Assembly (NCBI GenBank): GCA_028684255.1
Contig: JAQUGJ010000002.1
Span: 1-36,274 of the forward strand
From: Bacilli bacterium
GTDB taxonomy: Bacteria > Bacillota_I > Bacilli_A > RF39 > UBA660
DNA: 36,274 nucleotides
Direction: 5' to 3'
Below are positions 1-24,722 of this stretch, one piece after another. The position numbers and the translations under genes were made by a program. A model generated the notes under the pieces. It was not told the DNA's origin, searched no databases, and saw nothing but the letters and a program-made list of their open reading frames with translations. Position 1 is the first letter of the stretch, and each line of letters opens with the position of its first letter.

Positions 1-22
1 CTACACGACGCTCTTCCGATCT
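1..22. other. Illumina TruSeq adapter / read-1 primer tail (CTACACGACGCTCTTCCGATCT); non-biological contig-end artefact
   Basis: Exact match to the 3' 22 nt of the TruSeq universal adapter ACACTCTTTCCCTACACGACGCTCTTCCGATCT. It is far more GC-rich than the rest of the window. Confidence 0.95.
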
Positions 23-261
23 CAGATAGATCTAAATTTTCAATTATTGAAGATGTAAAAAAATATGCTAAAGAAAAAGGTTATAAATCTATTGATATCG
101 ATGGTATTCGTGTTGAATGGGAAGATTCTTGGGCTTTAGTAAGAGCTTCTAATACTGGACCGCATATTACAATGAGGTTTGAAGCGACAACTATAGAAAG
201 ATTAGAAGAAGTTAAAGAAGAATTCACTTTGCTTTTAGATAAATTAAAGGTAAGTTATTAA
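23..261 (+). CDS. Phosphomannomutase/phosphoglucomutase (alpha-D-phosphohexomutase) C-terminal fragment; 5' end off-window
   Basis: Frame-1 translation reads ...IDGIRVEWEDSWALVRASNTGPHITMRFEATTIERLEEVKEEF...KVSY*. This is the typical domain-4 motif (RxSNTxP, then xRFEA) of AlgC/ManB-type PMM/PGM. Stop TAA at 259-261. Confidence 0.8.
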
Positions 262-288
262 AAAGGAACAAATAGTTCTTTTTTTTTG
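262..288 (+). terminator. Weak rho-independent terminator after the PMM/PGM gene
   Basis: AAAGGAAC (262-269) pairs with GTTCTTTT (275-282), including one G-U pair, around a 5-nt loop. A T-run follows. Confidence 0.45.
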
Positions 289-319
289 TTTTATTAATAG
301 TTTTAAATAGGTGATATAG

Positions 320-463
320 TTGGACAAAGAAAAATTAGAAATCCAATTAATTTTGAATAGAGATTTATATAAAAAAAACATTATAGATATTAATATGTAC
401 AATTTTATATCAAATAAGTTATTACTGATGATAAAGGATAATCATGAATCTTTATCAAATTAG
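320..463 (+). CDS. Small ORF (47 aa, TTG start), hypothetical; candidate recombination directionality factor
   Basis: AGGTGA RBS sits 5 nt before TTG at 320. Translation is MDKEKLEIQLILNRDLYKKNIIDINMYNFISNKLLLMIKDNHESLSN*. It overlaps the recombinase start by 20 nt and is below the ORF-track length cut-off. No recognisable domain. Confidence 0.35.
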   Translation: MDKEKLEIQLILNRDLYKKNIIDINMYNFISNKLLLMIKDNHESLSN

Positions 464-2036
464 AAATAAGATGTTATCGGGTACTTCTATTCAAGATATG
501 AAGTTAAAAGTAACTTTCTATGCCAGGGTTTCTACTGATAAAGATGAACAAATACATTCTTTAGAGTCTCAAGTAAGTTATTTTGAGGATTATATTAAAA
601 AAAATTCTAATTGGTCTTTTATTTCTGGATATATAGATGAAGGAATAAGTGGTACTTCAATAAAAAAACGAGAAAATTTTATTCAAATGATTAAAGATGC
701 TAAAGATAATAAATTTGATTTAATATTAACTAAAGAAATATCCAGATTTTCAAGAAATACAATCGATAGTATTAAATATACCCAAGATTTATTACAATAT
801 GGTGTTGGGGTTTATTTTTTAAATGACAATATTAATACTATTCTTCCTGATAGTGAATTAAGGTTAACTATAATGGCTAGTGTTGCCCAAGATGAAGTTA
901 GAAAGTTATCGGAAAGGGTTTCTTTTGGAATGAAGAGATCGATTGAAAATGGTGTTGTTTTAGGATGTTCTAATATCTATGGTTATACTAAATCAAAAGG
1001 TAAGTTAATAATTGATGAAAATCAAGCTGAAATGATTAGATTTATCTATGATAATTATGCGAATACTTCAATTTCTTTATCATCTTTATCAAAGCTATTG
1101 TTTAAAAAAAATTACTTAAATACTAAAGGAAATAAAATTGATATAATGGTGATTCAAAGGATAATTGCAAATCCTAAATACAAAGGTTACTACTGTGGAC
1201 ATAAGACTAAAATAGTTGATTATAGAACTAAATTAAAACAAAAATTAAATCAATCAGATTGGAAAGTATATAAAGATTTTGAAAATGTGCCACCTTTAGT
1301 AAGTGAGGAATTATGGGAGCGTGCTAATGAAAAGTTAAAAAAAATTAAAGCTTCTTTTAGAAACCGCAATCAAGATACTAAGGTATTTCAGAATAGATAT
1401 ACTTACAGTGGTAAAATATTTTGCAAGACCCATGATTCCTCTTACCATCGTAGTAGTTCAGGTGCTAGATTAAAAAATCCGGCTTGGGAATGTTCAATTT
1501 ACCGTAAAAAAGGTATTAAAGGATGTTCTAATTCAAAGTTGTTTGAGTATCAATTAGATAAATTTTTTAACGATTTAATTAATATTGATAATGAAATAAT
1601 CTCTAATTTATTAGATTATTATAAACTATATTTAGATAAAAATGATTTAAATATTTCTAAAAAAATAAGTAATTTAGATATGAAAAAAAATAAGTTATTA
1701 GATCTATATATTGAATCTAAAATATCAAAAAAAGATTTTTTAATAAAAAAAGAAGAGTTAGAACTTGAAGTTAAAGAAAATATTAATAAAGAAAAATCAA
1801 TTAATAAATTAGATATAATTAAAAGTGAATTAATTAAAAGTAGTCATTCATGCTTTAATGAAATATTTAATTCTTTAATAGATAAAATAATAGTTGAGCG
1901 TGAAGATTCTAAAGCTAAATTAGAGATTAAATTTAAATCAAATAAAGTTATATATGCTATAAGTGATAAAAAGGGTCATAACTTTCATTTAACTGATTAC
2001 TATACAACAAATAACAGCAGTAAGTGCAGCAATTAA
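444..2036 (+). CDS. Large serine recombinase (resolvase catalytic domain, recombinase domain, zinc ribbon and coiled coil)
   Basis: N-terminal FYARVSTDKDEQ..SLESQ (catalytic Ser) and DLILTKEISRFSRN, MASVAQDEVRKLSERV. The middle part is a recombinase domain (GYTKSKGKLIIDENQAEMIRFIY). A Cys/His ribbon follows (FCKTHDSSYH...WECSIYRKKGIKGC), then a Lys/Glu-rich coiled coil. AAGGA RBS lies 5 nt upstream of the ATG. Confidence 0.9.
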   Translation: MNLYQIRNKMLSGTSIQDMKLKVTFYARVSTDKDEQIHSLESQVSYFEDYIKKNSNWSFISGYIDEGISGTSIKKRENFIQMIKDAKDNKFDLILTKEISRFSRNTIDSIKYTQDLLQYGVGVYFLNDNINTILPDSELRLTIMASVAQDEVRKLSERVSFGMKRSIENGVVLGCSNIYGYTKSKGKLIIDENQAEMIRFIYDNYANTSISLSSLSKLLFKKNYLNTKGNKIDIMVIQRIIANPKYKGYYCGHKTKIVDYRTKLKQKLNQSDWKVYKDFENVPPLVSEELWERANEKLKKIKASFRNRNQDTKVFQNRYTYSGKIFCKTHDSSYHRSSSGARLKNPAWECSIYRKKGIKGCSNSKLFEYQLDKFFNDLINIDNEIISNLLDYYKLYLDKNDLNISKKISNLDMKKNKLLDLYIESKISKKDFLIKKEELELEVKENINKEKSINKLDIIKSELIKSSHSCFNEIFNSLIDKIIVEREDSKAKLEIKFKSNKVIYAISDKKGHNFHLTDYYTTNNSSKCSN

Positions 2037-2667
2037 TGGTGGTGTCTTATATCAACCATATATAGTTAAAAGTTTAAATGAACCAGAAACTAATAGTGTG
2101 ATTTTAGAAAATAGTCCTAAAGTAGTTAGAAAGGTTATTAGTGAAGATACTAGTTTAAAAGTAAGAGATGCCTTAGAAAAAGTTGTTTCATATGGGACTG
2201 GAAGAAATGCGTTTATCGATGGATATAGAGTAGGCGGTAAGACAGGTACTGCTCAAAAGGTTTTAAATGGTAGATATATGGTAGGAAACTATATTACTTC
2301 TTTTATTGGTTTCTTACCAGCAGATAATCCTGAAGTTGTTGTTTATATCGCTATTGATAATGCTAAAGGTGTTACACAATATGGAGGAACAATAGCAGCG
2401 CCTATTGCCCGTCAAATATTACTAGATAGTATAAATGCTTTAGAAATAGAAAGAAGAAAAGATGGTCTTGAAAAAAAATATAATTATTTTGACCGTAAAT
2501 ATGCTGTTATTCCTAATGTTGTTGGATTAAAACCTAAAGAGGCAGTAAAAGAATTAAAAAAATTTAAAGTTGAGTTTTCTGGTAAGGGTGAGAAAGTAAT
2601 CCATCAATCACCAACACCTGGTTTAAATATCTATGAAGGTGAAATTGTCAGATTAATGCTCAACTAA
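1993..2667 (+). pseudogene. 3' segment of a split class-B penicillin-binding protein gene (SpoVD/PBP2B/FtsI-like; KTG box and one PASTA domain only)
   Basis: Frame-1 translation from 1993 reads LITIQQITAVSAAINGGVLYQPYIVK...GTGRNAFIDGYRVGGKTGTAQK...FIGFLPADNPEVVVYIAIDN...GGTIAAPIA, followed by a PASTA-like C-terminus (VIPNVVGLKPKEAVKELKK...). An in-frame TAA at 1990-1992 closes the frame upstream. There is no RBS or credible start. The TM anchor, SxxK motif and SxN motif are all missing. Confidence 0.85.
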
Positions 2668-2675
2668 TTGTAAAT

Positions 2676-2706
2676 AAGCAAGACTTAATTTGTCTTGCTT
2701 TTGTTT
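2676..2706 (+). terminator. Rho-independent terminator after the PBP fragment
   Basis: Perfect 9-bp stem AAGCAAGAC (2676-2684) / GTCTTGCTT (2692-2700) with a 7-nt loop, followed by TTGTTT. Confidence 0.8.
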
Positions 2707-2751
2707 ACAAATGGTAATATATTAGATATAATTAAGAAGGTAGGTGAAGAT

Positions 2752-3912
2752 ATGTTTAGGAAAACATACATAGAGATCGATTTAGATGTTATTAAAGACA
2801 ATGTTTCTAATATCATTAACAAATACAATGATTATGATTATTATTTTGGTGTTGTTAAAGGTAATGCTTATGGACATGGTATAGAAGTAATAGGACCTAT
2901 GATTGAATCTGGTATTAATTATTTAGCAGTTTCTAATTTAGATGAGGCAATCGAAGTTAGAAATAGTTATCAAAATATCCCGATTCTTTGTTTAGAACCA
3001 ATTGATTTAGAGTATATAGATGAATGTATTTTAAATAACATTGCAATAACTATTAGTAGTTATCAATATTTTAAAGAATTAAAAAAATTAGATAAAAAAG
3101 GATTAAAGGTTCATTTAAAGATAGATACTGGTATGAATCGTATAGGAATTGATGACTCTAAAAAAATTGAAGAGATTTATTATAATTTAATTGATAATAA
3201 AAAAATTGAGTTAGAAGGAATTTTCTCTCATTTTGCGACCCCAGGACTATATGACGTTAGATGGAATGAACAAGTTGATAAATTTAGAAAATTAACTCAA
3301 AACATCGATTTAAATAAGGTTCCAATTGTTCATATGGGTAGTAGTAATTCGATTGTAATACATCCTAAAATAGACTTTTGTAATGGTGTTAGATTGGGAA
3401 TTTTAATGTATGGAGTTTCACCTCGTAAGTTAAATTTTAAAGGTTTTAAAGGATATCTTAGAAAATTAAAATATACTCATTTATGGAAGAAAAATAACAT
3501 TCAAATTGCACCTGATTTTGATATAGATGTCAAAGATGCATTTTCTTATATAACTGAGGTTATGGAAATAAAAAATATTAAAAAAGGGAGTTTTATTGGA
3601 TATGGTAATAACTATCAAGCAGAAGAAGATATGTTAATAGCGGTTTTACCAGTTGGTTATGCTGATGGTATAAATCTTAATAATACTTTGAGAATGGTGG
3701 TTATAAACGATAAAAAATATCAAATTGTCGGTGATGTTAGTATGGGTATGATAACGGTTAAAATCGACGAAGATGTACATTTAAAGGACAAGGTATATTT
3801 AATAGGCAATGGTATTAGAATAAGGGATGTCGCTAGTTATATAAAGTGTACTCCACATTATGTTGTTACTAGTATTCCATCATCAGTACCAAGGATATAT
3901 AGAAAGAGGTAA
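2752..3912 (+). CDS. alr: PLP-dependent alanine-racemase-family amino-acid racemase
   Basis: VVKGNAYGHG (PLP-binding Lys), HLKIDTGMNRIG, FSHFA, PVGYADG and the GYGNNY region. The start is moved to ATG 2752 (RBS AAGGTAGGTGA) because the ORF-track extension from 2695 overlaps the upstream terminator. A basic insertion of about 25 aa (KLNFKGFKGYLRKLKYTHLWKKNN...) follows the YGVSP motif, compared with canonical Alr. Confidence 0.8.
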   Translation: MFRKTYIEIDLDVIKDNVSNIINKYNDYDYYFGVVKGNAYGHGIEVIGPMIESGINYLAVSNLDEAIEVRNSYQNIPILCLEPIDLEYIDECILNNIAITISSYQYFKELKKLDKKGLKVHLKIDTGMNRIGIDDSKKIEEIYYNLIDNKKIELEGIFSHFATPGLYDVRWNEQVDKFRKLTQNIDLNKVPIVHMGSSNSIVIHPKIDFCNGVRLGILMYGVSPRKLNFKGFKGYLRKLKYTHLWKKNNIQIAPDFDIDVKDAFSYITEVMEIKNIKKGSFIGYGNNYQAEEDMLIAVLPVGYADGINLNNTLRMVVINDKKYQIVGDVSMGMITVKIDEDVHLKDKVYLIGNGIRIRDVASYIKCTPHYVVTSIPSSVPRIYRKR

Positions 3913-3914
3913 GT

Positions 3915-5132
3915 ATGGATTTTGAAATAGTTTTAATAGGAACGGATATTAATAGTTATTATATGGCTAGAAATACACATGAAGCTTATAATAAAAAAGC
4001 TTATGTAATTGGTAAGGAACCGATGAAGTTTACTAGTTATAGTAAGATAATTAATCTACAAATAGAACCAAGATTACATGAAAAAGAAGTGTTTATTCGT
4101 GTGTTAGAAGATTTTGCACTAAAACATCAAGATAAAAAATTAATTTTGATTCCTACTAATGATAATTATGTTAGATTAATAATTGAAAATAAAGAATTTT
4201 TCAAAAAATATTATTTATTTAATGATATAAGTGAAGAGTTAATGAATAGTTTATTAGTTAAAGATAAATTTTATGAAGTGTATGAAGACTCTTCAATTGA
4301 TTTACCAGAAACTTATATATACAATATCAATGATGAGTTAGATTTAAAACGTGTTTCAAAGTTAGGACTTCCAATTATAGTGAAACCTGGTGATGGAGTT
4401 AGTTATCATCATCATGAGTTTGAAAATCAAGCTAAGGTTTATAAATTAAAAAGTGTCGAAGAATTGATATCAGTTGTTAAACAAATAAAAGATTCTAAAT
4501 ATAACGGTACTTTGATTTTACAAAAATTTATATCTGGGGATGATAGTTATTTATGTGATGTTATATTTTATTGTGACCATACAAGAAAATGTAAGTTGAT
4601 GACTTTTGCCCAAATAGGATTACAAGAGCGCACTATAACAGGTGTAGGTAATTGTACTGTTTTAGTTAATGGCTATTGTAATTTAGGTCCTTATGGTAAA
4701 ACAGTAGAACAGTTAAGAGAATTTATAGATACACTAGATTATCAAGGTTTTGCAGAGATTGACTTAAAATATGATGAAGACGATCAAAAGTTTAAGGTTT
4801 TAGAAATTAATCCACGCCAAGCTAGATCAAGTTATTATTTGACACCTTGTGGTTATAATATTGTAAAGTATATTGTAAATGATTTGTTGTATAAAAAAGA
4901 GTTAGAATTTGAATTTATTGATCAAGAGGTATGTTTATCTTTTGTACCTAAGAAAGTAATCGATGATTATGTTTTAAATCGTGGCCTTAAAGATAAAATA
5001 AATGAGTTAATAAAACAAAAAAGATTTTATGATCCACTTGATTATTCAAAAGATAATTTGTTAAAAAGGAAGCTTTGGCTTTCTTTAAGAAAGTTAAATT
5101 ATATTAAAAAGTATAAAGAAAATAATTGGTAG
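3915..5132 (+). CDS. ATP-grasp carboxylate-amine ligase, D-aspartate-ligase (Asl)-like
   Basis: The N-terminus IVLIGTDINSYYMARNTHEAYNKKAYVIG matches the signature I recall for the Asl/carboxylate-amine ligase family. There is a central ATP-grasp core (IIVKPGDGVS, LILQKFISG, EINPR). The start is 2 nt after the racemase stop. Confidence 0.6.
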   Translation: MDFEIVLIGTDINSYYMARNTHEAYNKKAYVIGKEPMKFTSYSKIINLQIEPRLHEKEVFIRVLEDFALKHQDKKLILIPTNDNYVRLIIENKEFFKKYYLFNDISEELMNSLLVKDKFYEVYEDSSIDLPETYIYNINDELDLKRVSKLGLPIIVKPGDGVSYHHHEFENQAKVYKLKSVEELISVVKQIKDSKYNGTLILQKFISGDDSYLCDVIFYCDHTRKCKLMTFAQIGLQERTITGVGNCTVLVNGYCNLGPYGKTVEQLREFIDTLDYQGFAEIDLKYDEDDQKFKVLEINPRQARSSYYLTPCGYNIVKYIVNDLLYKKELEFEFIDQEVCLSFVPKKVIDDYVLNRGLKDKINELIKQKRFYDPLDYSKDNLLKRKLWLSLRKLNYIKKYKENNW

Positions 5133-5141
5133 AGGTGAATT

Positions 5142-6545
5142 ATGAATCAAAAAAAAGAACTTCTAAAGAATACCTTTATGATTGCTTTTGGAAAAAGTAG
5201 TACTCAAGTAATCAGTTTTCTTTTATTACCATTATATACATCGATTTTATCGACATCGGAATATGGAGATTATGATTTACTTAATACTTTATCAATTTTC
5301 ATTATCCCTTTTATAACTTTATTGATTGAAGAAGCAATGTTTAGATTTTTAATCGATGCTAAAAATGATGAAGAAAAAAGTGAAGTTATTAGTCACGCGG
5401 TGATTGTGACTTTAACTAATATGGTTATAGGTGCAGGGGTTATATATCTATGTGGTACTATTTTTAATTATCCATATACCGTTTATTTAATTTTTTTTGT
5501 TTTAGCGAGTATATTAAGTACTTTAGCAGGGTCTTGTTCAAGAGGACAGGGAGATTATAAACTGTATTCAATATTTGCGTCTTTATCTAGTTTATTTACA
5601 GTAATATTGAATGTTGTTTTTATTGCAATTTTAAAATGGGGAGTAGTTAGTTTATTTTTAGCATATATAATAGCGAATGCATCTGTATCTATTTGGCTTT
5701 TATTAAAGATGAATGTTCATAAATTGCTTTCTTTTAAAAAGATAAATAAGAGCAAATTAAAAGAGATGTTAAAGTACTCAATTCCATTAGTACCCAATAG
5801 TGTCTCTTGGATTATTATTAATTTATCAGATAGGTTAATTATTGTAACTTTTATTAATACAGCTGCTAATGGTATATATGCGATTTCTAATAAGTTTTCT
5901 ACTATTATAAATACTTTTTATTCGTTTTTTTATATGGCTTGGAAGGAATCTGCTTCTAAGGTTTTTGATAAGGAAGATAAGGATAAATTTTATAATAATA
6001 TTTATATTAATTTAAAACATTTGTTGATGGCTGTAAGTATCGGTATGTTAGCATATTTACCTTTTGTGTTTCCTGTTTTAGTTAATAAGGAATACTACGA
6101 TGCTTATCAATATATTCCAATCTTAATTTTAGCAGTTTATTTTAATAATATTTCTAGTTATTGTGGTGGCATTTTTGCAGCCTATAAGGATACTAATACG
6201 ATGGGATTAAGTACTCTTATAGCAGCTATTATCAATATATTAGTCAATATTTCATTAGTTAAACATATTGGTTTATATGCAGCGGTTATTTCTACTTTAT
6301 TGGCTACTTATGCTGTATATCTTTACCGCATTAAAAAGATGAAAAAATTTTTAATTTTAGATAAAGATAAGTATGGTTTAATAAGTGGTTTAATATTTGG
6401 ATTTTTACTACTTACTTATTACTCTGATAATTTAATAATGTATATAGTTGGGGTACTAGTTGGAACTATATATCCATTTTATTTAAACCTCAATATTGTT
6501 AAAGCAATATTAAATAAGGTGTTTAAAAAAAGGGTTAGTCAATAA
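5142..6545 (+). CDS. MOP-superfamily flippase (Wzx/MurJ/SpoVB-like polysaccharide or lipid-linked precursor transporter)
   Basis: 467 aa and multi-TM throughout, with a typical N-terminus (KNTFMIAFGKSSTQVISFLLLPLYT) and the LVPNSVSW motif region. GAGGTGA RBS. Confidence 0.75.
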   Translation: MNQKKELLKNTFMIAFGKSSTQVISFLLLPLYTSILSTSEYGDYDLLNTLSIFIIPFITLLIEEAMFRFLIDAKNDEEKSEVISHAVIVTLTNMVIGAGVIYLCGTIFNYPYTVYLIFFVLASILSTLAGSCSRGQGDYKLYSIFASLSSLFTVILNVVFIAILKWGVVSLFLAYIIANASVSIWLLLKMNVHKLLSFKKINKSKLKEMLKYSIPLVPNSVSWIIINLSDRLIIVTFINTAANGIYAISNKFSTIINTFYSFFYMAWKESASKVFDKEDKDKFYNNIYINLKHLLMAVSIGMLAYLPFVFPVLVNKEYYDAYQYIPILILAVYFNNISSYCGGIFAAYKDTNTMGLSTLIAAIINILVNISLVKHIGLYAAVISTLLATYAVYLYRIKKMKKFLILDKDKYGLISGLIFGFLLLTYYSDNLIMYIVGVLVGTIYPFYLNLNIVKAILNKVFKKRVSQ

Positions 6546-6593
6546 TTAATTAAATATTTAATTATGTTAAAATTATAAAATAGGAGTGATAGT

Positions 6594-8066
6594 TTGAAAA
6601 GACGAGGATTTACTTTAATGGAATTACTAGCAGTTATTGTTATTTTAGCAATTATTGCTTTAATAGCAGTACCGATTGTTCTTGATTATATTAATGAAGC
6701 TAAGATAAAGACTTATGTTAGTAATGAAAACTCTGTTAAAGAAGCCGCTAAATTATATTTAACGAGAAATTTAGATGAACTTCCAAAAAATATAGGCGAT
6801 ATTTATGAACTAAGTATTAAAGACTTATATGAAGGTAATTATTTGGAACAAATAAACGATCCTGAAAGAAGTTCAATTAAATGTAATGGTTATGTTATAG
6901 TAACTAAGTTAGGATCTAATTCATTTGATTATAGCCCACATTTAAAATGTGGCGATATGAATTATGTTAACAATTCTTTAGAAGATGGGATAGTTGCCCA
7001 TTATAAATTTGATGATTTTCAAGAACCAACTGTTAATTTAGTTGTAAGTCCTGAATTTTCTAATGGTTCTTTAGGACTAAAATGGGGTAGTTGGGAAAAT
7101 TCTGTTTTAACGTTTGAAAGATTAAGTTTATTAGGACAAGAAACTAATGTCACTAATATGACAAAAAGAACAGCTGGTACTACTAATGCTATTCATCAAG
7201 CGATTCCTAATTTAACGATTGATTCACCTTATACATTATCTTTTTATGCAAGAATAAATCCTAATTCATTAAGTGATTCTGGAAAAATAAAGGCCTACAT
7301 TAATGGTTATGTCGATTATTCAATTACTAAAGAGTGGACAAGGATAAGTTTGACTCAAATTGCTAAAGCTACTTCACAAACTATTCATATTACTCAGTTT
7401 AGTCCTGAATATGATGTTCAAATTGCCTATGTTAGTTTAGAAAATAAAGAGTATTCAACTGACTTTGTAAATGGTACTAGAACAGCAAAAATTAAGGATT
7501 ATTCTGGCCATGGATACGATAGTGGTTTAGATCCTTTAACATCTCCTAAGTGGGTTAATAATGGTAATAAGAATACAGGTGCTTATAAGTTTAGCAAAAA
7601 TAATGAGGTTATTACTGCTTATGATGTTTTAACTAATGTATTTAATAATCAATCTTATTCATGGGGTGCTTGGATAAATATCGATAATAGTTTTAGTAGC
7701 AATGGTCGAATTTTAATGAGTCAAAGTAATGCTTTAGAACTATCTATTAATTCATATCGAAAAATTTATATTAGTTATAAGGATCTAAATAAATGGAATA
7801 GTTTAACTGCGAGTCCAATACTTTCTAAGGATAATTGGTATCATATTTTTGTGACTTTTGAAGATAATACGATGAAGTTATATATTAATGGTAAATTAGA
7901 AGGTGAATTAATAAGTGATGATTTTATAAATCCAAGTGATAATATATATATCGGTAATTGGTCTTCTAATCAAGTTTTTAAAGGTATGATCGATGATGTT
8001 CGCATATATAATCGTGCTCTTGATAAATTAGAAGTTGAAAGAATATATTACACAACAAAATCGTAA
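6594..8066 (+). CDS. Type IV pilin/pseudopilin-like protein with C-terminal beta-sandwich and LamG (concanavalin-A-like) domains
   Basis: TTG start after an AGGAG RBS. The class III signal MKRRG|FTLMELLAVIVILAIIALIAVP has Glu at +5. A pilin head-like region with 2 Cys follows. The C-terminus carries the LamG_3-type signature (WYHIFVTFEDNTMKLYINGKLE...IYIGNW...FKGMIDDVRIYNRALDKLEVERIY). Confidence 0.8.
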   Translation: MKRRGFTLMELLAVIVILAIIALIAVPIVLDYINEAKIKTYVSNENSVKEAAKLYLTRNLDELPKNIGDIYELSIKDLYEGNYLEQINDPERSSIKCNGYVIVTKLGSNSFDYSPHLKCGDMNYVNNSLEDGIVAHYKFDDFQEPTVNLVVSPEFSNGSLGLKWGSWENSVLTFERLSLLGQETNVTNMTKRTAGTTNAIHQAIPNLTIDSPYTLSFYARINPNSLSDSGKIKAYINGYVDYSITKEWTRISLTQIAKATSQTIHITQFSPEYDVQIAYVSLENKEYSTDFVNGTRTAKIKDYSGHGYDSGLDPLTSPKWVNNGNKNTGAYKFSKNNEVITAYDVLTNVFNNQSYSWGAWINIDNSFSSNGRILMSQSNALELSINSYRKIYISYKDLNKWNSLTASPILSKDNWYHIFVTFEDNTMKLYINGKLEGELISDDFINPSDNIYIGNWSSNQVFKGMIDDVRIYNRALDKLEVERIYYTTKS

Positions 8067-11190: not shown

Positions 11191-11685
11191 ATGGAAAAAA
11201 GAGATTTGTATAATTTTAATAAAGAGTTAATAGGAAAAACAATTTATAAAAAAGAGGATGTACCTGAAGGTTGTTATATTTTAGTGGTTTTATCATTTAT
11301 TCAAAATAGTAGAAAAGAGTTCTTAATTCAAAAGACAAGTATATCAAAAGGTTTGGAATGGGCTTTTACAGGAGGGCATCCAAAAGAGGGAGAGTCTTCT
11401 TTAATGGGAATATATACTGAAATAGAAGAAGAGTTAGGAATTAAGGTAAAAAATGCTATATGGTTTAAAGAGGTTAAAGGAAAGGACCGAATCTGTGATT
11501 TATATTATGTAAATGAAGATATTAGTTTAGATGATATTGTTATGCAAGAAGAGGAAGTTTCAGATGTTTGTTATGCCACAATTGAAGAGATTCATGATTT
11601 ATATAATTCTGGTTTATTTAAAAAAGGACATTATATGTTATTTAAAGATTGTTTAGAGTATTTAAATAATCAAGGTGATCTATGA
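11191..11685 (+). CDS. Nudix hydrolase
   Basis: Nudix box GGHPKEGESSLMGIYTEIEEELGI, in which the canonical Arg of the RE pair is replaced by Thr. The start is placed at ATG 11191, 9 nt after GAGGA. Confidence 0.8.
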   Translation: MEKRDLYNFNKELIGKTIYKKEDVPEGCYILVVLSFIQNSRKEFLIQKTSISKGLEWAFTGGHPKEGESSLMGIYTEIEEELGIKVKNAIWFKEVKGKDRICDLYYVNEDISLDDIVMQEEEVSDVCYATIEEIHDLYNSGLFKKGHYMLFKDCLEYLNNQGDL

Positions 11686-12336: not shown

Positions 12337-13446
12337 ATGAAAAAAATAGGTATTATTACATTTCACTGTGCAGATAATTTAGGAGCAGTACTTCAAGTTT
12401 ACGCTCTTCAAAAAAAAATAAATAAACTTGGTTTAGAATCAGAGGTAATCGATTTTAAACCACTTGAATTACTTTATCCTTATGGATTAAAGAATTTGAA
12501 AGATGTTAAAAAGAGAGGTTTTATAAAAACTATTAAAAGTATAGTTGTATTAATAATTAGAAGAAAAGTTAAAAATAAAAGGGATGTATTTAAAAAATTT
12601 AGAGAAAAGTATTTAGTTATTTCTAAACAAACATATTATGAATCTGAGGATTTGAATGCTAATCCTCCTCAATATGATTACTATATAACTGGAAGTGACC
12701 AAGTGTGGAATCCAGATTTTTTCGAGAAAATTGGAAAATCTTATTTTTTAGATTTTGCATCTCCTTCTTCAACAAAAATATCATATGCTGCTAGTATTAC
12801 TAAGAAAATGGATGATAGTTTTAATGATGTGTTTAAAAAAAATATAGACAGATTTGATTTTATTTCCATAAGAGAAAGTGAACATGTTAGGTTTTTAAAA
12901 AATTTAACTGAAAAACCAATAACTGTTGCACTAGACCCAACTCTATTATTGGACAAAGAAGATTATAATGTATTGTTAAGCAAATCAAAGATAAAGGAAA
13001 AATATATTTTGGTATATGATTTGGAATATAATGAAGAGTTAGTAAAATTAGCTAATAAGATATCAGAAGAAAAAGGTTATAAGATTGTTAGTTATTCTGA
13101 TCATAAAAACTATGAAAATAGAATTAAAACATTTAGATACGAAGGTCCAAGTGAATTCATTAGTTATTTAGAAAATGCAGAGTTTGTTTTAACAACTTCA
13201 TTTCATGGAGTAGCCTTTTCTGTCATTTTTAAAAAGCCTTTTTATACAATCCCTCATAAAACTAGAGGAACAAGAATGATTGATCTTTTAAATTCAATTG
13301 GTTTAGAGGATAGAATCGTATATAACTTTGATGATTTAGAAAGTATTAATTATGAACTTGATTATAGTAAACCTTTTGAATTACTTAATAAAAGAAGAGA
13401 AGAATCTTCTAACTTTTTAATTACTGCTTTGGATGAAAAAAAGTAA
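12337..13446 (+). CDS. Polysaccharide pyruvyl transferase family protein (copy 1)
   Basis: ITFHCADNLGAVLQVYAL, GSDQVWNP and TSFHGVAFSVIFKKPF are typical PS_pyruv_trans motifs. Confidence 0.8.
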   Translation: MKKIGIITFHCADNLGAVLQVYALQKKINKLGLESEVIDFKPLELLYPYGLKNLKDVKKRGFIKTIKSIVVLIIRRKVKNKRDVFKKFREKYLVISKQTYYESEDLNANPPQYDYYITGSDQVWNPDFFEKIGKSYFLDFASPSSTKISYAASITKKMDDSFNDVFKKNIDRFDFISIRESEHVRFLKNLTEKPITVALDPTLLLDKEDYNVLLSKSKIKEKYILVYDLEYNEELVKLANKISEEKGYKIVSYSDHKNYENRIKTFRYEGPSEFISYLENAEFVLTTSFHGVAFSVIFKKPFYTIPHKTRGTRMIDLLNSIGLEDRIVYNFDDLESINYELDYSKPFELLNKRREESSNFLITALDEKK

Positions 13447-13474
13447 TAAAAAAATATTAGAAAGTGTGTTATAA

Positions 13475-14986
13475 GTGGATAGAACAAAAAAATTCTTTTA
13501 CAATTCAATATCGGCAATATTCTATCAAATAATTTTAATGATTGTTGGAATTATTATTCCAAGGATTATGCTAAAATATTATGGCTCTGAAATTAACGGT
13601 TTGGTGTCATCTATTACTCAATTTGTATCATATTTTTATTTGGTTGAAGCAGGATTATCAGCAGCAGCAGTTTATGCATTATATAAACCTTTGGCTGATA
13701 AAGATAACAATTCTATTAATGCTGTTGTTTCTGCTGCAAGAAAATTTTATATTCAAACAGGTTATGTTTTTACCTTATTGGTTTTAGTATTTGCAATTTT
13801 TTACTCTTTTTATATAAAAACACCTTTTTTATCTCCAATAAATATTGGATTTTTAGTAATAATTTTAGGTGCTAATGGTGTAATAGATTTTTTTGCATTA
13901 TCTAAATATCGTGTTTTATTAACAGCTGATCAAAAAAATTATATTATTTCCTTATCTTCAGTGGTGTATTTGCTTTTAAATACGTTTATTATAATTATTT
14001 TAGGAACAGAACAAGTAAATATTGTGCTTCTAAAACTAGTAGCGATTTTACCTATATTTTTAAAGTCATTTATGATAATGATATATGCAAAGCATAATTA
14101 TAAATATTTAGATCATAAAGTAGCGCCTAATACAAAAGCATTAGATAAAAGATGGGATGCTCTATATTTACAAATTTTAGGTGTAATACAATCGGGTGCA
14201 CCAATTATAATTTTAACTTTTGTCACTAAAGATTTAAAATTAATTAGTTTGTATTCTATTTATAATATTGTTCTTGCAGGAGTTAATGGAATTTTAAATA
14301 TATTTCAAAGCGGATTACCGGCTTCATTTGGAGAAATAATCGCGAAGGGTGAAAAGAAAACTCTTCAAAGATCATATAATGAGTTTGAATTTTTCTACTA
14401 TTCATTAATAACGGTTATTTATTCAATAACGTTTGTTATGATTATGCCGTTTATTAAGATATATACAAGTGGTATAACTGATTTTAATTATAATATGCCA
14501 ATTGTAGGTTTCTTATTTGTATTGAATGGGTTATTATATAATTTAAAAACACCACAAGGTATGTTAGTAATATCTGCTGGTATGTATAAAGAAACTCGGG
14601 TTCAATCGACAATGCAAGGAATACTTATTGTACTTTTTGGATTAATTTTAACACCTTTTATTGGTATATATGGTGTATTAATAGGCGCTATTATTTCTAA
14701 TCTTTATAGAGATATTGATTTATTATTCTTTGTGCCTAAAAAAATAACAGGATTGACTATTATTAATACTTTAAAAAGAATGTTGAGGGTTTTTATTACT
14801 AGTCTTATTATTTGTTTACCTTTTCTATATATTAATATTGATCCATCAGGATATATTGAATGGATTTTATATGCCTCAGTAATTGGTGTTTATTCTGTTA
14901 TTGTTATGTTAATCATTAGTTTCATTTTTGATAGAAAAGCTTTAATGGATATTATTAAAAGGATTATAAGGATGGTGAAGAGATGA
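13475..14986 (+). CDS. wzx: MOP-family oligosaccharide flippase (Wzx-like)
   Basis: 503 aa and multi-TM, with N-terminus KKFFYNSISAIFYQIILMIVGIIIPRIMLKYYGSEINGL. GTG start. No ATG alternative preserves the first TM segment. Confidence 0.75.
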   Translation: MDRTKKFFYNSISAIFYQIILMIVGIIIPRIMLKYYGSEINGLVSSITQFVSYFYLVEAGLSAAAVYALYKPLADKDNNSINAVVSAARKFYIQTGYVFTLLVLVFAIFYSFYIKTPFLSPINIGFLVIILGANGVIDFFALSKYRVLLTADQKNYIISLSSVVYLLLNTFIIIILGTEQVNIVLLKLVAILPIFLKSFMIMIYAKHNYKYLDHKVAPNTKALDKRWDALYLQILGVIQSGAPIIILTFVTKDLKLISLYSIYNIVLAGVNGILNIFQSGLPASFGEIIAKGEKKTLQRSYNEFEFFYYSLITVIYSITFVMIMPFIKIYTSGITDFNYNMPIVGFLFVLNGLLYNLKTPQGMLVISAGMYKETRVQSTMQGILIVLFGLILTPFIGIYGVLIGAIISNLYRDIDLLFFVPKKITGLTIINTLKRMLRVFITSLIICLPFLYINIDPSGYIEWILYASVIGVYSVIVMLIISFIFDRKALMDIIKRIIRMVKR

Positions 14987-16179
14987 TTTCTGTATTTGAT
15001 AGAAAAGAAGAATGTTGTGGATGTACTGCTTGTATGAATATTTGTCCGACTAAGGCAATAAAGATGGTTGAGGATGAAGAGGGTTTTTTATATCCAAAAA
15101 TTGATCAAGCGTTATGTATTAATTGTGGTAAATGTAGAAAGGTTTGTCCTTTTCAAAATGAAATAAATATAAGTAATAAACTTTCTAAGCCAACAGTTTA
15201 TGCAGTTAAACACAATAAAGAAAGTGTTAGAATGAAAAGTTCTTCCGGAGGTGTTTTTACTGCAATTTCAGATTATGTTTTAAATAATGGTGGCGTTGTT
15301 TATGGAGCAGCATTTGATGAAAATTTTAATGTTATTCATAAAAAAGCTGAAACTTCTGAAGAATGTAATAAGTTTAGAGGGTCAAAATATGTTCAAAGTG
15401 ATTTGTCAAATGTATATAAGCAAATAAAAGACTTATTAAAAAGCGACCGTCAAGTACTTTTTTCTGGAACCCCATGTCAAACTGCTGGGTTAAAAAGTTT
15501 TTTAACAAATAGTCGTACTAATACTGATAATTTAATAATAAACGATATTGTTTGCCATGGAACACCAAGTCCTAAAATATGGTTAGATTATATTGATTTT
15601 ATTGAAAAAGGTAATAAACTTAAATCCTATAGTTTTAGATTTAAAGAAAGAGGATGGCATGGATATAATATAATGGCCGAATATAAAAACGGAAAAAGAA
15701 AAATTAATACTAAAGAATTAAAAATTTTTACGAATTTATTTAGTTCTGATTTATTATTAAGACCTTCATGTCATAATTGTAAATTTGCTAATATAGATAG
15801 GAAATCTGATATTACTATTGGTGATTTTTGGGGAATAGAAAAAACTATGCCGGGAATTGATGATAACAAAGGAATTTCGCTTGCTTTAGTTAATACAGTA
15901 AAAGGTGAGCAAGTTTTCGAAAAAATTAAAGAAAATATTGATTTTTGGGAAAATAAGATAGAAGATTCTTTGCAACCTAATTTAATATCGCCAACTAAAA
16001 AGCCCTTAAAAAGAGAAGTTTTTTGGGAATACTATTATAAAAATGGATTTTTATTTATAGCAAAAAAATATGGTGGATATAATTTTAAATCTTATATGAA
16101 AAGCAAGATAAGATATGTGTTACAAAAAACCGGTACTTTCAATTTGATAAAATCTATTTTAGGGAAAAAAAAGGTTTAA
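14983..16179 (+). CDS. FrhB/FdhB-like (coenzyme F420 hydrogenase beta-subunit family) 2x[4Fe-4S] protein (copy 1)
   Basis: Two CxxCxxCxxxCP motifs (CCGCTACMNICP, CINCGKCRKVCP). The FrhB_FdhB-like body includes SSSGGVFTA, GTPCQ and the DIVCHGTPS and GDFWG regions. The ATGA start overlaps the wzx stop. Confidence 0.75.
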   Translation: MISVFDRKEECCGCTACMNICPTKAIKMVEDEEGFLYPKIDQALCINCGKCRKVCPFQNEINISNKLSKPTVYAVKHNKESVRMKSSSGGVFTAISDYVLNNGGVVYGAAFDENFNVIHKKAETSEECNKFRGSKYVQSDLSNVYKQIKDLLKSDRQVLFSGTPCQTAGLKSFLTNSRTNTDNLIINDIVCHGTPSPKIWLDYIDFIEKGNKLKSYSFRFKERGWHGYNIMAEYKNGKRKINTKELKIFTNLFSSDLLLRPSCHNCKFANIDRKSDITIGDFWGIEKTMPGIDDNKGISLALVNTVKGEQVFEKIKENIDFWENKIEDSLQPNLISPTKKPLKREVFWEYYYKNGFLFIAKKYGGYNFKSYMKSKIRYVLQKTGTFNLIKSILGKKKV

Positions 16180-21377: not shown

Positions 21378-22484
21378 ATGAAGGTTTCGATAATTACAAT
21401 ACATAGAGTATTAAACTATGGAACGGTATTACAATCTTTCGCTACACAAGAACTAATTAAAGAGTTGGGATGTGAGGTGGAAATAATAGATTATATTACC
21501 GAGGAAAGAAATTTTAAAAAAATATTTTTATGGTCTCCTAAATCGTTAAAAAATTTTAAATTACGAAAAGTAATATATGTTTTATCTAGATTTCCAGCTA
21601 ATTTATTAAAACATCTTTCTTTTTCTCAATTTATTAATAAATATTATTTATTAACAAAAAGAAAATACTATACAATTAATGATTTGAAAAAAAACCCACC
21701 TTCTTCAGATATTTACTTAGTCGGAAGCGATCAAGTCTGGAATAGTAAATATAACGGAGGTGTAGATAGAGGTTTTTTCTTAGATTTTGGAGATGAAAAT
21801 ACCAAAAAAATATCTTATGCATCAAGTTTTGGCTCGAATGAATTACAAAAAAATGATTTTATAGAAATAAATAAGTTATTATCTAAATTTAATTTTATAT
21901 CTGTTCGTGAAGATACAGGAGTAAAGATTCTAAATGATATGGGATATAGTGCAGAGTTGGTGCTTGACCCTACATTAATGTTAAATAAAGATAAATGGTT
22001 ATCGTACATAAAAAGCAAAAAAATCAATAGAAGATATGTTTTATTATTTATTTTATATAATGAAGATAATGGTGCAACTCAATATGCAAGAAAAATAGCT
22101 GACAAATTAGGTCTTGAAGTTATCCAATTATATTGGAAACCAATTAAGAGACAAGGGGTAGATAGAATTGCTATTTACAAAAGTCCTTTTGAATTTTTGC
22201 GATATATAAGGGATGCAGAATATATAGTAACAAATTCTTTTCACGGCACAGCATTTGCCATAAATTTTAACAAACAATTTATTACTGTTGCTAGAAGTGA
22301 ATTTAATACAAGATTAGAGAGTATTTTAAGACTATGTAAATTAGAAAATAGATATATAACTAAAAAAATTAATATTAAAGAAGTAATAAAAAAAATTAAC
22401 TATACACTAGTTAACGAAATACTAGAAAAAGAACGTAATAAATCCTTATCTTATCTTGAAAAAGCAATATATAAAAGAGAGTAG
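21378..22484 (+). CDS. Polysaccharide pyruvyl transferase family protein (copy 2)
   Basis: ITIHRVLNYGTVLQSFA, GSDQVWNS and NSFHGTAFAINFNKQF. It is a paralogue of the gene at 12337-13446. Confidence 0.8.
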   Translation: MKVSIITIHRVLNYGTVLQSFATQELIKELGCEVEIIDYITEERNFKKIFLWSPKSLKNFKLRKVIYVLSRFPANLLKHLSFSQFINKYYLLTKRKYYTINDLKKNPPSSDIYLVGSDQVWNSKYNGGVDRGFFLDFGDENTKKISYASSFGSNELQKNDFIEINKLLSKFNFISVREDTGVKILNDMGYSAELVLDPTLMLNKDKWLSYIKSKKINRRYVLLFILYNEDNGATQYARKIADKLGLEVIQLYWKPIKRQGVDRIAIYKSPFEFLRYIRDAEYIVTNSFHGTAFAINFNKQFITVARSEFNTRLESILRLCKLENRYITKKINIKEVIKKINYTLVNEILEKERNKSLSYLEKAIYKRE

Positions 22485-22491
22485 GAATAAA

Positions 22492-23502
22492 ATGAAAATA
22501 CTTTTCTTAGGAGATTATAAAGCTAATACGGGACCTTCAAATGTAAATAAAAATTTAAAAGAATACTTACCAAAAAATGTGATTTATATCAATAGTTCAA
22601 AAAAAATTTTTAGAATCATTGAAATATTCATAAAAGCATTTTTATCAAATGTAATAATAATATCTGGACATTCGAAAAGTAATCGAATTTGCATAAATAT
22701 ATCAAAAATATTTGGAAGAAAAAAGAAAATATTAAATATTCAGCATGGCTCAGCATCATATGAAAATGAAACAAATAATTTAAATAACAAAAAAATGGTA
22801 ATTGAAGAAAAATATCTTTTAGATAATGTAGATTTAATTTTATGTGTTTCAGAAAATTTTATGAAATGGTTTAAAAATTATAGTCCACAATATAGTCATA
22901 AAACTTCGTATTTAAACAATGGAGTTGATTGGGGAATACTTGATAAAGAAAAAAACAAAACAATAATTAATAAGGAACCAAATACTATAATAACTATGGG
23001 CGGCGGTAGACCACAAAAAAATAATGTAATGATATGTGAAGCAATAAAAATTTTAAATGAAGAAAAAAACAAAAAATATAAATTAATAGTATTAGGTAGA
23101 GACTATGAAGATACTGAAAAAATTAAATCATATAATTTTGTCGATTATGTTGGACAAGTTAAATACGAGGAAGCATGCTATTATTTAAAAAAATCTTCAA
23201 TTTTTATTCAAAACAGTTCTCTTGAATCGTTTGGGTTAGCAACGATTGAGGCGCTATTGAGTGGGTGTAACATATTAGTTTCAAAAAATGTTGGAGCTAT
23301 TAGTATTTTAACATTAATTGATGAAATTGACATTATCGGTGACTGTAATAACCCTAATGAAATTGCTAGTAAAATATTATATTTATCGAAAAATCCTAAT
23401 AATAAAAGGATAATAAGAGATCTTGATAAAAACAAGACATCTTATAAATATGCAGCAAATAGATTAATGGAAATAGTAAGAGAATTAGTGATAAAGGAGT
23501 AA
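22492..23502 (+). CDS. GT4 (group 1) glycosyltransferase
   Basis: C-terminal ESFGLATIEALLSGCNILVS (E-x7-E region). The start is set at ATG 22492, after the upstream stop at 22484. Confidence 0.75.
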   Translation: MKILFLGDYKANTGPSNVNKNLKEYLPKNVIYINSSKKIFRIIEIFIKAFLSNVIIISGHSKSNRICINISKIFGRKKKILNIQHGSASYENETNNLNNKKMVIEEKYLLDNVDLILCVSENFMKWFKNYSPQYSHKTSYLNNGVDWGILDKEKNKTIINKEPNTIITMGGGRPQKNNVMICEAIKILNEEKNKKYKLIVLGRDYEDTEKIKSYNFVDYVGQVKYEEACYYLKKSSIFIQNSSLESFGLATIEALLSGCNILVSKNVGAISILTLIDEIDIIGDCNNPNEIASKILYLSKNPNNKRIIRDLDKNKTSYKYAANRLMEIVRELVIKE

Positions 23503-23507
23503 ATTTA

Positions 23508-24692
23508 ATGAATAATGTAATTCAAAAGATTAAAATAGATAATTCAAGTTCACAGAAAAAACAAAAAAACATTACACCGCGAGGGAAAAAAAACAAATTT
23601 AATCAAATAATATATATTGTAATGTTAATATTGTTTTTTTTAAACTGGTCAACTCCATCAATTCATATCAAAATTAGGGAGATACTTCCAGTGTTTACTG
23701 CTTTATTATTATTATTTTTAGTATTAATAAATATTAATGAAATATATAAAGATAATAAACAACTTTTTATTTTTATATTTATTATAATTTTAACATTAAT
23801 AGGTATGGTGGTGAATAATTCTAATTTAGGTGTCTTTTTTGTAATATTTAATTTTTCATTAATGCTACTAGTTAGTAGTAAAGTTGAATTTACTGATAGG
23901 TTTATAATTATTTTATCGTGTTTGTTCCTGCTCTTTTTTTTCTATTGGATAACCTTGTGTCCTGAAGGATTTAATACAAATAGTATTGGTCTTGTAACTT
24001 TAGTAACATATATTTGTAGTTTATATTTTATTTTTTCAATCAAAGAAAGTTTTTTTAAAAAAATTTTAATTTTATTAATCACTTTTATTGCATATAAAAA
24101 CGTATTGGTTTCCGAATCACGCTCTTGTTTTATAGGTTTAATTTCATTTACATTTTTGTGTTATATAATACCTAAAAAAATGTGGTTAAATAATAAATCA
24201 TTAAAATTTATATATTTATTAATAACAATAGGCTCGATTTATTTTGTTATGTTATATATATTTATGTGGGAAAATAATATTACTTTTATTATAGAAGGAT
24301 TTTCAAAAAATTTTTTTTCAGGAAGAGAAGCAATTTGGTATGAGTTATGGAATTTATTTAAATTAAATCCAATTTTTGGATTAGGATCAAATATTGATTT
24401 GACATCAAATTCAAATTTGAATGTGCATAATTCTATGTATAATCTTTTGGTAATTTATGGTTTGCTAATTTTTATCTTGATTATTATTCAGATATGTAAA
24501 CATTTTTCAAATATATCTTTAGATAAAAATAAAAATAAATTTATTTTAATTTCATTTGCTGGATTTATTTCTATAGCGGTGCAAAGTTTTTTTGAAAATA
24601 CATTAATTTCAGTTAACTTTATTCCTATTATATTATTTTTACTTACTACAGCAAATTCAAATATATTAAAAAAGGAATTAAAAAAAAATTAA
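23508..24692 (+). CDS. wzy: O-antigen ligase/polymerase-family membrane protein (Wzy)
   Basis: About 10 or more TM segments. The Wzy_C-like block runs SESRSCFIGLI ... GREAIW ... GLGSN...NVHNSMYNLLVIYGLLIF. Confidence 0.75.
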   Translation: MNNVIQKIKIDNSSSQKKQKNITPRGKKNKFNQIIYIVMLILFFLNWSTPSIHIKIREILPVFTALLLLFLVLININEIYKDNKQLFIFIFIIILTLIGMVVNNSNLGVFFVIFNFSLMLLVSSKVEFTDRFIIILSCLFLLFFFYWITLCPEGFNTNSIGLVTLVTYICSLYFIFSIKESFFKKILILLITFIAYKNVLVSESRSCFIGLISFTFLCYIIPKKMWLNNKSLKFIYLLITIGSIYFVMLYIFMWENNITFIIEGFSKNFFSGREAIWYELWNLFKLNPIFGLGSNIDLTSNSNLNVHNSMYNLLVIYGLLIFILIIIQICKHFSNISLDKNKNKFILISFAGFISIAVQSFFENTLISVNFIPIILFLLTTANSNILKKELKKN

Positions 24693-24722
24693 AATTTTAG
24701 TGAAGTGAGAGTGATTTAATAG

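Follow-up and report, generated by a model that had tools for sequence, protein, structure and literature searches.

Why should the gene of a cell-wall enzyme be represented by its last third only, placed directly behind a recombinase gene? The question is raised by positions 444-2667 of a 36,274-nucleotide stretch of DNA from a Bacilli bacterium of the RF39 group (UBA660; contig JAQUGJ010000002.1 of assembly GCA_028684255.1), here called the window, which has ~25% G+C and nearly all its open reading frames (ORFs) on the + strand. The gene fragment belongs to the SpoVD family of class B penicillin-binding proteins (PBPs), and the neighbouring enzyme is a large serine recombinase (LSR). The region is very probably an attR junction, where an LSR element has inserted into a gene of the spoVD family. 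It is fairly likely that the split gene is still reassembled by excision, and there is close to an even chance that this excision is specific to sporulation. Considered as a whole, a non-phage integrative element that sits in the gene of a SpoVD-family class B PBP and is excised to rebuild it in sporulation is, on balance, the probable explanation.

The PBP frame, from 1990 to 2667, reads stop-LITIQQITAVSAAINGGVLYQPYIVK...GGKTGTAQK...LMLN-stop. It opens with LIT-IQQITAVSAAINGG after an in-frame TAA (1990-1992), and its first codon homologous to PBPs is ATA at 2002-2004. The initial annotation had recognized a C-terminal PBP fragment here, which holds, and had started it at about 1999, which does not, as the homology begins at 2002. 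It was also right that the homology is lost just upstream, where LIT stands in place of VTP and is preceded by the TAA: protein comparison gives GVSVTPIQQITAVSAAINGG in relatives versus LITIQQITAVSAAINGG in the window, and GVSVTPIQQITAVS in close relatives versus LITIQQITAVS. Both domains that it proposed to look for are matched, PF00905 (Transpeptidase, E 6.5e-33) and PF03793 (PASTA, E 1.2e-09), as is the NCBIfam family TIGR02214 spoVD_pbp (E 2.5e-74), with 250.7 bits for the window fragment (cut-off for full-length proteins, 688) and 88.5 for the runner-up family. Profile coverage is limited to C-terminal positions, 165-298 of 299 in PF00905 and 411-633 of 636 in TIGR02214, so only the last third of the PBP lies in the window, without the SxxK and SxN motifs, as had been stated. 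The fragment likewise lacks a start and a ribosome-binding site, since the frame contains no ATG, GTG or TTG from 1993 up to a GTG at 2098 and no Shine-Dalgarno sequence is seen by eye.

The 530-aa serine recombinase that had been reported upstream of the fragment carries the domains of an LSR, namely PF00239 (Resolvase, E 9.9e-31, residues 25-171), PF07508 (Recombinase, E 4.3e-13) and, as a borderline match, PF13408 (Zn_ribbon_recom, 24.9 bits versus a cut-off of 25.3). In precomputed annotations of related loci (designated below by L numbers), PF13408 is weak in L003-L006 and unmarked in L008. Residues R28-V29-S30-T31-D32 are invariant across the recombinases of five relatives, and the whole protein is 73% identical to the recombinase of L008 and 59% to that of L006.

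The initial annotation had allowed for an assembly chimera at this point. The junction recurs in independent assemblies: it is identical in the NCBI contig JAQVXV010000003.1 (GCA_028708945.1), where a 2552-aa GH94 protein, PGI and PGM precede the recombinase, and it is present in a sister species known from two sources (GCA_030154545.1, L008; a Logan assembly, L009) and at 45 metagenome loci. It is therefore no assembly artefact. The first 22 nucleotides of the window are an Illumina adapter (CTACACGACGCTCTTCCGATCT), missing from the otherwise identical NCBI contig. The sister species has the gene order of the window, with PGM, a small ORF, the recombinase, the PBP fragment, Alr, ATP-grasp, flippase, mraY and ftsW.

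The nature of the interrupted gene is given by its intact relatives. A search with the reconstructed N-terminal part yields two sets of proteins: 94 that are full-length (611-664 aa), among them one to which NCBI gives the name stage V sporulation protein D, and 19 shorter ones (410-428 aa) whose end lies at or close to ...GQGVSVTPI. On human-gut contigs with an intact gene, the order is mraZ, rsmH, an ftsL-like small ORF, a 786-aa PBP, two genes, a 634-aa PBP and, later, mraY; across intact and split relatives it is mraZ-rsmH-ftsL/DivIC-like-786/788-aa PBP-x-634/635-aa PBP...mraY. The target comes after the pbpB-like PBP in the dcw cluster, the place that spoVD has in Bacillus. Against TIGR02214 (cut-off 688), the reconstituted protein of L002 scores 727.9 and the intact protein P0171 724.7. 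At the 16 loci read in which both PBPs are visible (L005-L007, L095-L099), interruptions are confined to the spoVD-like paralogue and spare the adjacent pbpB-like one.

Split relatives display both sides of the insertion. In L005/L006, a 5′ half of 418 aa, ending in ...VTPIHLIV and a stop, is separated from the 3′ half by a 4.6-kb insert with a LysR-type gene, a sugar phosphatase, a 68-aa ORF and the LSR 59% identical to that of the window, which abuts the 3′ half of the PBP gene exactly as in the window. A scan of metagenome contigs with the window LSR gives 80 loci. PBP residues ~412-635 abut the recombinase in 45 of the 46 that have a full-length LSR at least 54% identical and DNA downstream. 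Both gene halves, 4,600-10,527 bp apart and split at the same codon as in the window, are held by 13 loci. In-silico excision produces an uninterrupted frame with restored motifs in 10 of 10 loci, three of them with two elements; seven of the rejoined genes are full (633-636 aa), and three are open over the recovered part, the gene start not being reached. The earlier claim that a dcw-cluster PBP gene is interrupted by an LSR element is thus borne out by intact orthologues of ~635 aa, by relatives with both halves and by a rejoining that restores the ORF.

How common the split is among relatives is a separate matter. The 120 best matches to the C-terminal fragment held no full-length PBP, and a clade-wide split was at first deduced from them; this was dropped once the 94 full-length proteins had been found. 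Word-based candidate choice favours short proteins, which makes frequencies of split and intact genes unreadable from this list. The closest intact protein to any split one is only ~88% identical, and polymorphism within a strain therefore gives no evidence either way. P0106 and P0068, considered as proteins starting at the window site, were rejected: P0106 is broken at SxN, and the apparent start is a choice of the gene caller.

Comparison of the 13 loci with two halves defines the recombination sites. No dinucleotide other than CA (window 2005-2006) is invariant at both junctions, and the sites read attL = B-CA-P′ (...GGTCAAGGnGTnAGyGTnACT CCTATA-CA-CCTTAyT GTCTAATAAATGATAC) and attR = P-CA-B′ (GGTAAAAAGTTTCATTTAwTAGACy CCTATA-CA-ACAAGTAAC...). 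The P and P′ arms are inverted repeats of each other over 16 bp, with a 16-nt spacer between them. The architecture is of the serine-integrase type, with short inverted-repeat arms, a 2-bp crossover and no long direct repeat. The P arm of the window is homologous to the P arms at 45 metagenome loci. Its 54-nt attR is 100% identical to that of L008 in surroundings that are ~80% identical, for which the chance is roughly 0.8^54 = 6e-6; such perfect conservation argues that the recombination site is still used.

The sole exception in the census, L068 (ERZ1643249 NODE_931, 30.9 kb), has the attP form, with the P arm joined directly to P′ (11606-11652) around a spacer of 15 nt, not 16. Its coverage is 157x versus 9-13x for other contigs of the sample, and it represents either a free circular form or a tandem copy. 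The LSR ORF itself extends 32 nt into host-derived DNA, its codons from ~2005 and its stop being host B′ DNA. In the integrated state, the last ~10 codons and the stop are host DNA (...YYTTNNSSKCSN-stop; window 2001-2036, L006 15837-15892), and in the free form they are element DNA (...DDNTLGV-stop in L068, 11600-11640). Because the ORF crosses the crossover point, the C-terminal tail of the LSR varies with the integration state, a property that may contribute to the control of directionality.

Is the split gene still of use to the host? The ratio of non-synonymous to synonymous divergence (dN/dS) between the window and its sister species L008 is 0.096 for the PBP fragment (dS 0.96), 0.078 for mraY (dS 0.90), 0.077 for ftsW (dS 1.05) and 0.19 for the recombinase (dS 1.0). 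The 32 codons from the junction to the first possible start, which are translatable only if an upstream reading frame is joined on, have accumulated six synonymous changes and a single non-synonymous one, which is conservative. The fragment is thus under purifying selection like mraY and ftsW, which together with the conserved attR argues against a decaying remnant and disposes of the decayed pseudogene for which the initial annotation had made provision. The similar dS values of LSR and host genes suggest, at the level of sequence, that recombinase and host have diverged together, and since the whole arrangement is common to the window and L008, the insertion most likely predates their split. 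As an attR is useful only with an attL, selection and attR conservation lead to the prediction that the 5′ half is retained elsewhere in the window genome, where the expected attL would consist of the 5′ segment ...GQGVSVTP-ATA-CA followed by a P′ arm close to ATCAGTTAAATGA.

The spoVD-like gene is broken at other places as well. Among the 120 best matches to the C-terminal fragment, 18 begin at the SxxK motif (MVGTFKIIT...) and 41 at the SxN motif (...NPGFV). For example, L002 has an 8.7-kb element at the SxxK site, with a 575-aa LSR 38% identical to that of the window and TTTAAAAT common to both junctions, and L003 has a 577-aa LSR at the SxN site. Two elements occupy one gene in L018 and L048 (SxxK and TP/IQQ sites) and in L032 (SxN and TP/IQQ sites), leaving it in three pieces separated by inserts that each have their own LSR (L018 2271-12278, L048 3-12293, L032 1153-12284). 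Removing both elements in silico gives open frames of 634 aa in L018 and 633 aa in L032, and of the 526 aa recovered in L048, whose contig starts inside the gene. The spoVD-like gene is therefore an insertion hotspot for at least three recombinase lineages at three motif-coding sites. Further 5′ halves end in ...TPIQQRVL-stop or, in 410-aa forms, ...AFGV[RS]VY-stop (e.g. P0139, P0145, P0207, P0228), which points to further element types. In L097 (10001-21260), the break after ...TPIQQRVL-stop is followed by >10 kb with Fic, a two-component system and an ABC transporter.

Excision by an LSR raises the question of what directs it. The start of the LSR gene is overlapped by 20 nt by a 47-aa ORF, which has no Pfam or NCBIfam match. 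It belongs to an alignable family of small ORFs, a member of which immediately precedes the LSR gene in every class C element examined (45 loci aligned), with lengths of 56-72 aa in the aligned relatives; its dN/dS (window vs L008) is 0.36. Excision of the gin element requires GirC and the 42-aa GirX, which blocks integration (PMC5595907), and by analogy with GirX the 47-aa protein is a candidate recombination directionality factor (RDF). An additional 144-aa ORF lies further upstream of the small ORF in gut relatives. A hairpin followed by a T run precedes the small ORF in the window, where it scores below the threshold of the terminator scan, and has equivalents in L008, L012 and ~30 gut elements. 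At ~30 loci besides L028 (9617-9800), the leader upstream of the small ORF is highly conserved. There, it comprises a 19-bp hairpin and a terminator-like hairpin (RNA fold z-score -6.8), only the latter of which is found in the window. Rfam has no match for this leader or for window 1-2800, and a sigma-70 promoter scan finds nothing within 259-443.

As for the type of element, the initial annotation had offered a prophage or an integrative and conjugative element (ICE) as an alternative to developmental excision. The visible cargo is a sugar operon (GH94-PGI-PGM) in the window and defence or toxin-antitoxin genes in relatives, and no phage or conjugation gene is seen, so that the visible sequence gives this alternative no support. 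Phage structural, lysis or replication genes are absent from the 10 kb upstream (GH94, PGI and PGM) and from five annotated relatives, and the sole match of the window in a phage database is a weak one to the recombinase. Likewise, relaxase, coupling protein and type IV secretion genes are absent from the Pfam matches of the cargo ORFs examined, among which unannotated ORFs remain. The cargo of relatives is variable, with AbiEi/AbiEii, mTERF and HNH in L028, Fic in L013, radical SAM, dNK, PfkB and MazG in L034, LysR and a phosphatase in L006, a 2081-aa methylase-helicase in L012, and a type I restriction-modification system, KAP NTPase, SMODS/DUF6602 and AbiE in L068. The left end of the window's element is at least 10 kb from the LSR. 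A different serine recombinase, of 488 aa, lies directly upstream of a GH94 homologue in L092 (8437-9903, GCA_028685535.1) that is 51% identical to the GH94 protein beside the element of the window, and the GH94-PGI-PGM operon may itself be recombinase-associated.

These data can be combined in a mechanism in which the insertion separates the codons of ...VTP from those of IQQ.... On the comparative evidence, the LSR family recognizes the DNA coding for this conserved peptide, an attB of ~50 bp, and inserts with strand exchange at CA, within the first codon for Gln. The 3′ third of the gene, which lacks a start codon, is silent as long as the element is integrated. Recombination of attL with attR by the LSR, with the 47-aa protein probably acting as directionality factor, would release a circular element and leave an intact spoVD-like gene of ~635 aa. 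The most likely setting would be the terminally differentiating mother cell in sporulation, as for skin, SPbeta, vfbin, vrin, gin and yin.

A link with sporulation is favoured by the relatives that pass the SpoVD equivalog cut-off, by the interruption of the spoVD-like paralogue alone, by a promoter-like motif and by the predicted presence of spore formers in related orders. The motif, CATAnnnT, lies -23 to -26 from the PBP start codon, right after the upstream terminator, in 8 of 9 split loci and in intact genes (L002 385-395, L006, L013, L018, L032, L051, L069, L095/L096). It fits the CATA -10 element of sigma-E/K and equally the TAnnnT of sigma-A, and is compatible with either. Reduced-genome Bacilli orders related to the host are predicted to include spore formers (PMC10868615). 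What suggests a role of the host gene in sporulation is its family assignment.

Several observations weigh against this reconstruction. Neither the window nor 1.1 Mb of related loci yields a sporulation gene, the tblastn search of the latter, with SpoIIID, SspA, Spo0A, SpoVT and SpoIVA sequences, being uninformative; no CATA-type mother-cell promoter is evident upstream of the small ORF or the LSR. The 5′ half and attL of the window genome are not seen, its assembly being outside both collections searched: it is absent from the genome collection (best match of a GH94 query, 43% identical) and from the metagenome contigs (no exact 40-mer). The predicted attL pattern (B arm, ATACA and inverted P half-site) has no match in genome_contigs, the collection that lacks this assembly. 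The GH94-PGI-PGM operon lies in an ordinary chromosomal context in the relative L093, so that the left part of the presumed element in the window may be captured or rearranged host DNA. Finally, gut relatives carry LSRs 95-100% identical beside PBP fragments only 50-65% identical, and the divergences of LSR and PBP are uncorrelated across gut loci (Spearman rho 0.015). The gut elements are thus highly mobile, intact fragments there may just reflect recent insertion, and the argument from vertical inheritance rests on the window/L008 pair.

The main rival explanation, judged unlikely, is that of an ordinary integrative element for which conserved PBP codons serve as an attB of broad host range and which knocks out a dispensable second class B PBP, with no programmed excision, in a host that is asporogenous or tolerant. 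It accounts well for the horizontal mobility, identical LSRs being present in hosts whose PBPs are 50-60% identical, for the defence and toxin-antitoxin cargo typical of selfish islands and for the existence of a free attP form. All three target sites code for highly conserved motifs, as expected if conserved attB DNA is what is selected, and neither a sporulation promoter nor a sporulation gene is seen in the sequences scanned. It has more difficulty with the window/L008 pair, in which the insertion appears ancestral (same flanks, LSR dS close to host dS), attR is perfectly conserved and the evolution of the fragment resembles that of an essential gene, including the codons that have no means of being translated while the element is in place. 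Nor would it predict that none of 10 reconstituted genes, doubly interrupted ones included, has a stop or frameshift, or that the 16 loci with both PBPs have only the spoVD-like paralogue interrupted.

Purifying selection needs only occasional use of the gene, which would also be satisfied by a reversible on/off switch of a vegetative PBP, comparable to active lysogeny at comK of Listeria, with excision and re-integration in non-sporulating hosts. In principle, an LSR that has an RDF works in either direction (PMC5595907), and sporulation is unproven in the host and has been lost in some related lineages. This scheme is nevertheless improbable: with no replication function seen in the elements, an excised circle would be lost at division unless quickly re-integrated, the gene passes the SpoVD equivalog cut-off at the family level and occupies the spoVD position, and every characterized LSR element in a Firmicute sporulation gene excises during sporulation. 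That the locus is a dead remnant or a chimera, i.e. a PBP pseudogene decaying beside an unrelated recombinase with no 5′ half anywhere, has very little probability. The 5′ half of the window genome has admittedly not been retrieved, and the adapter at the window's left end indicates an assembly not fully cleaned, but the recurrence of the junction in the NCBI contig, in both sources of the sister species and at 45 metagenome loci, the low dN/dS, the conserved attR and the presence of both halves in 13 relatives all contradict it.

The closest known system is gin, in gerE of Bacillus cereus ATCC 10987 (PMC5595907), a small non-phage element that also has an LSR and a tiny accessory protein without recognizable motif. 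Precise excision of gin rebuilds the ORF of a sporulation gene, whereas here the rebuilding is in silico and in relatives. The target is gerE in one case and spoVD in the other, kinship of the recombinases is shown only at the level of the LSR family, and the present elements differ by their sugar-operon cargo, with defence genes in relatives, and by their hosts, uncultured low-GC Bacilli. In skin (sigK, SpoIVCA), SPbeta (spsM, SprA/SprB), vfbin (spoVFB), vrin (spoVR) and yin (yabG), a serine-recombinase element likewise lies inside a mother-cell sporulation gene, with intact gene halves and att sites within the coding sequence. These are prophages or relics of 14-134 kb, in contrast to the elements described here, in which no phage gene is seen, which measure 4.6-10.5 kb in relatives, and which involve at least three LSR lineages and three sites in one gene, sometimes with two elements at once.

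More distant parallels exist. The heterocyst elements of Anabaena/Nostoc (fdxN with the serine recombinase XisF; nifD, hupL) undergo programmed excision in a terminally differentiated cell, and several of them may interrupt genes of one pathway. They differ in phylum, target gene and developmental programme, and the NCBIfam match of the window LSR to XisF is weak (96.6 bits, far under the cut-off of 375). Staphylococcal SCC (CcrA/B/C, attB in rlmH) are non-phage LSR cassettes with variable cargo, as here. CcrB is the best NCBIfam match of the window LSR (108 bits, far under the cut-off of 900), but SCC, being inserted at the 3′ end of rlmH, leaves that gene active, while the present gene is cut mid-way.

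The interrupted genes known from the literature are sigK, spoVFB, spoVR, spsM, gerE and yabG. Interruption of spoVD or of another PBP gene was not found in full-text searches, in agreement with the initial annotation, which was aware of no described element in the dcw-cluster PBP; subscription-only papers are outside this scope. A cell-wall enzyme as target, multiple LSR lineages and sites, double interruptions, defence-type cargo and uncultured Mycoplasma-related hosts are unusual for elements of this kind. With the present locus, spoVD, which codes for a peptidoglycan transpeptidase, joins the short list of genes interrupted by excisable elements, and the phenomenon extends to uncultured Mycoplasma-related Bacilli living in animal guts and digesters, for which sporulation is a matter of debate. 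Since split genes are easily scored as absent or partial in surveys of gene content, predictions of sporulation and cell-wall phenotypes (e.g. PMC10868615, in which spoVD is reported as reduced in RF39) may be biased. The elements also constitute a vehicle for horizontal transfer of defence cargo in gut Bacilli, between hosts with PBPs 50-60% identical, and provide ready attB/attP/attL/attR sets for several new LSRs, enzymes that are sought for genome engineering. As a tentative extension, somewhat doubtful at present, spoVD could be a preferred safe harbour for defence-island-like cassettes of several independent LSR lineages in a large group of mostly uncultured low-GC reduced-genome Bacilli, and be rebuilt by one or two successive programmed excisions in the mother cell. 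If so, it would be the first cell-wall synthesis gene subject to developmental rearrangement of its DNA, and the first bacterial sporulation gene to need two different recombinases for its reassembly.

The features of the junction region are collected in Table 1.

Table 1. Coordinates of features at the left end of the window, in nucleotides from its first letter
Feature	Position	Strand	Evidence and remarks
PGM/PMM, 3′ end; last gene of the GH94-PGI-PGM operon	23..261	+	PF00408 PGM_PMM_IV, E 9.7e-10; element side
Terminator-like hairpin (AAAAGGAAC-loop-GTTCTTTT) and T run	261..289	+	By sequence reading; just upstream of the small ORF
47-aa ORF, candidate RDF	320..463	+	TTG start; AGGTGAT ribosome-binding site at 309-315
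LSR, 530 aa	444..2036	+	PF00239, PF07508, PF13408; catalytic Ser30 in RVST motif
attR: element P arm, crossover, host B′ arm	1974..2027	.	54-nt conserved block; inferred crossover CA at 2005-2006
spoVD-family PBP, 3′ segment	2002..2667	+	Codons ~413-635: end of transpeptidase with KTG motif, PASTA; stop 2665-2667
Intrinsic terminator closing the PBP gene	2676..2700	+	Terminator scan
Promoter-like site for the next gene	2704-2732	+	Promoter scan

Downstream of the PBP fragment, the window continues with alanine-racemase-like, ATP-grasp, flippase and pseudopilin-like genes, then mraY, an ftsW/spoVE-like gene and a long polysaccharide cluster. At the expected place of murE/murF (2695-8066) are found instead the alanine-racemase-like, ATP-grasp and polysaccharide flippase genes and the gene of a prepilin-type (N_methyl) LamG protein. 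With the exception of the prepilin-type LamG, the same genes lie between the PBP fragment and mraY in L008. Further on, a polysaccharide pyruvyl transferase gene with an FrhB/FdhB-like iron-sulfur gene one or two ORFs downstream occurs in two copies (12337-16179 and 21378-25880), both pairs being located within the large polysaccharide synthesis cluster.

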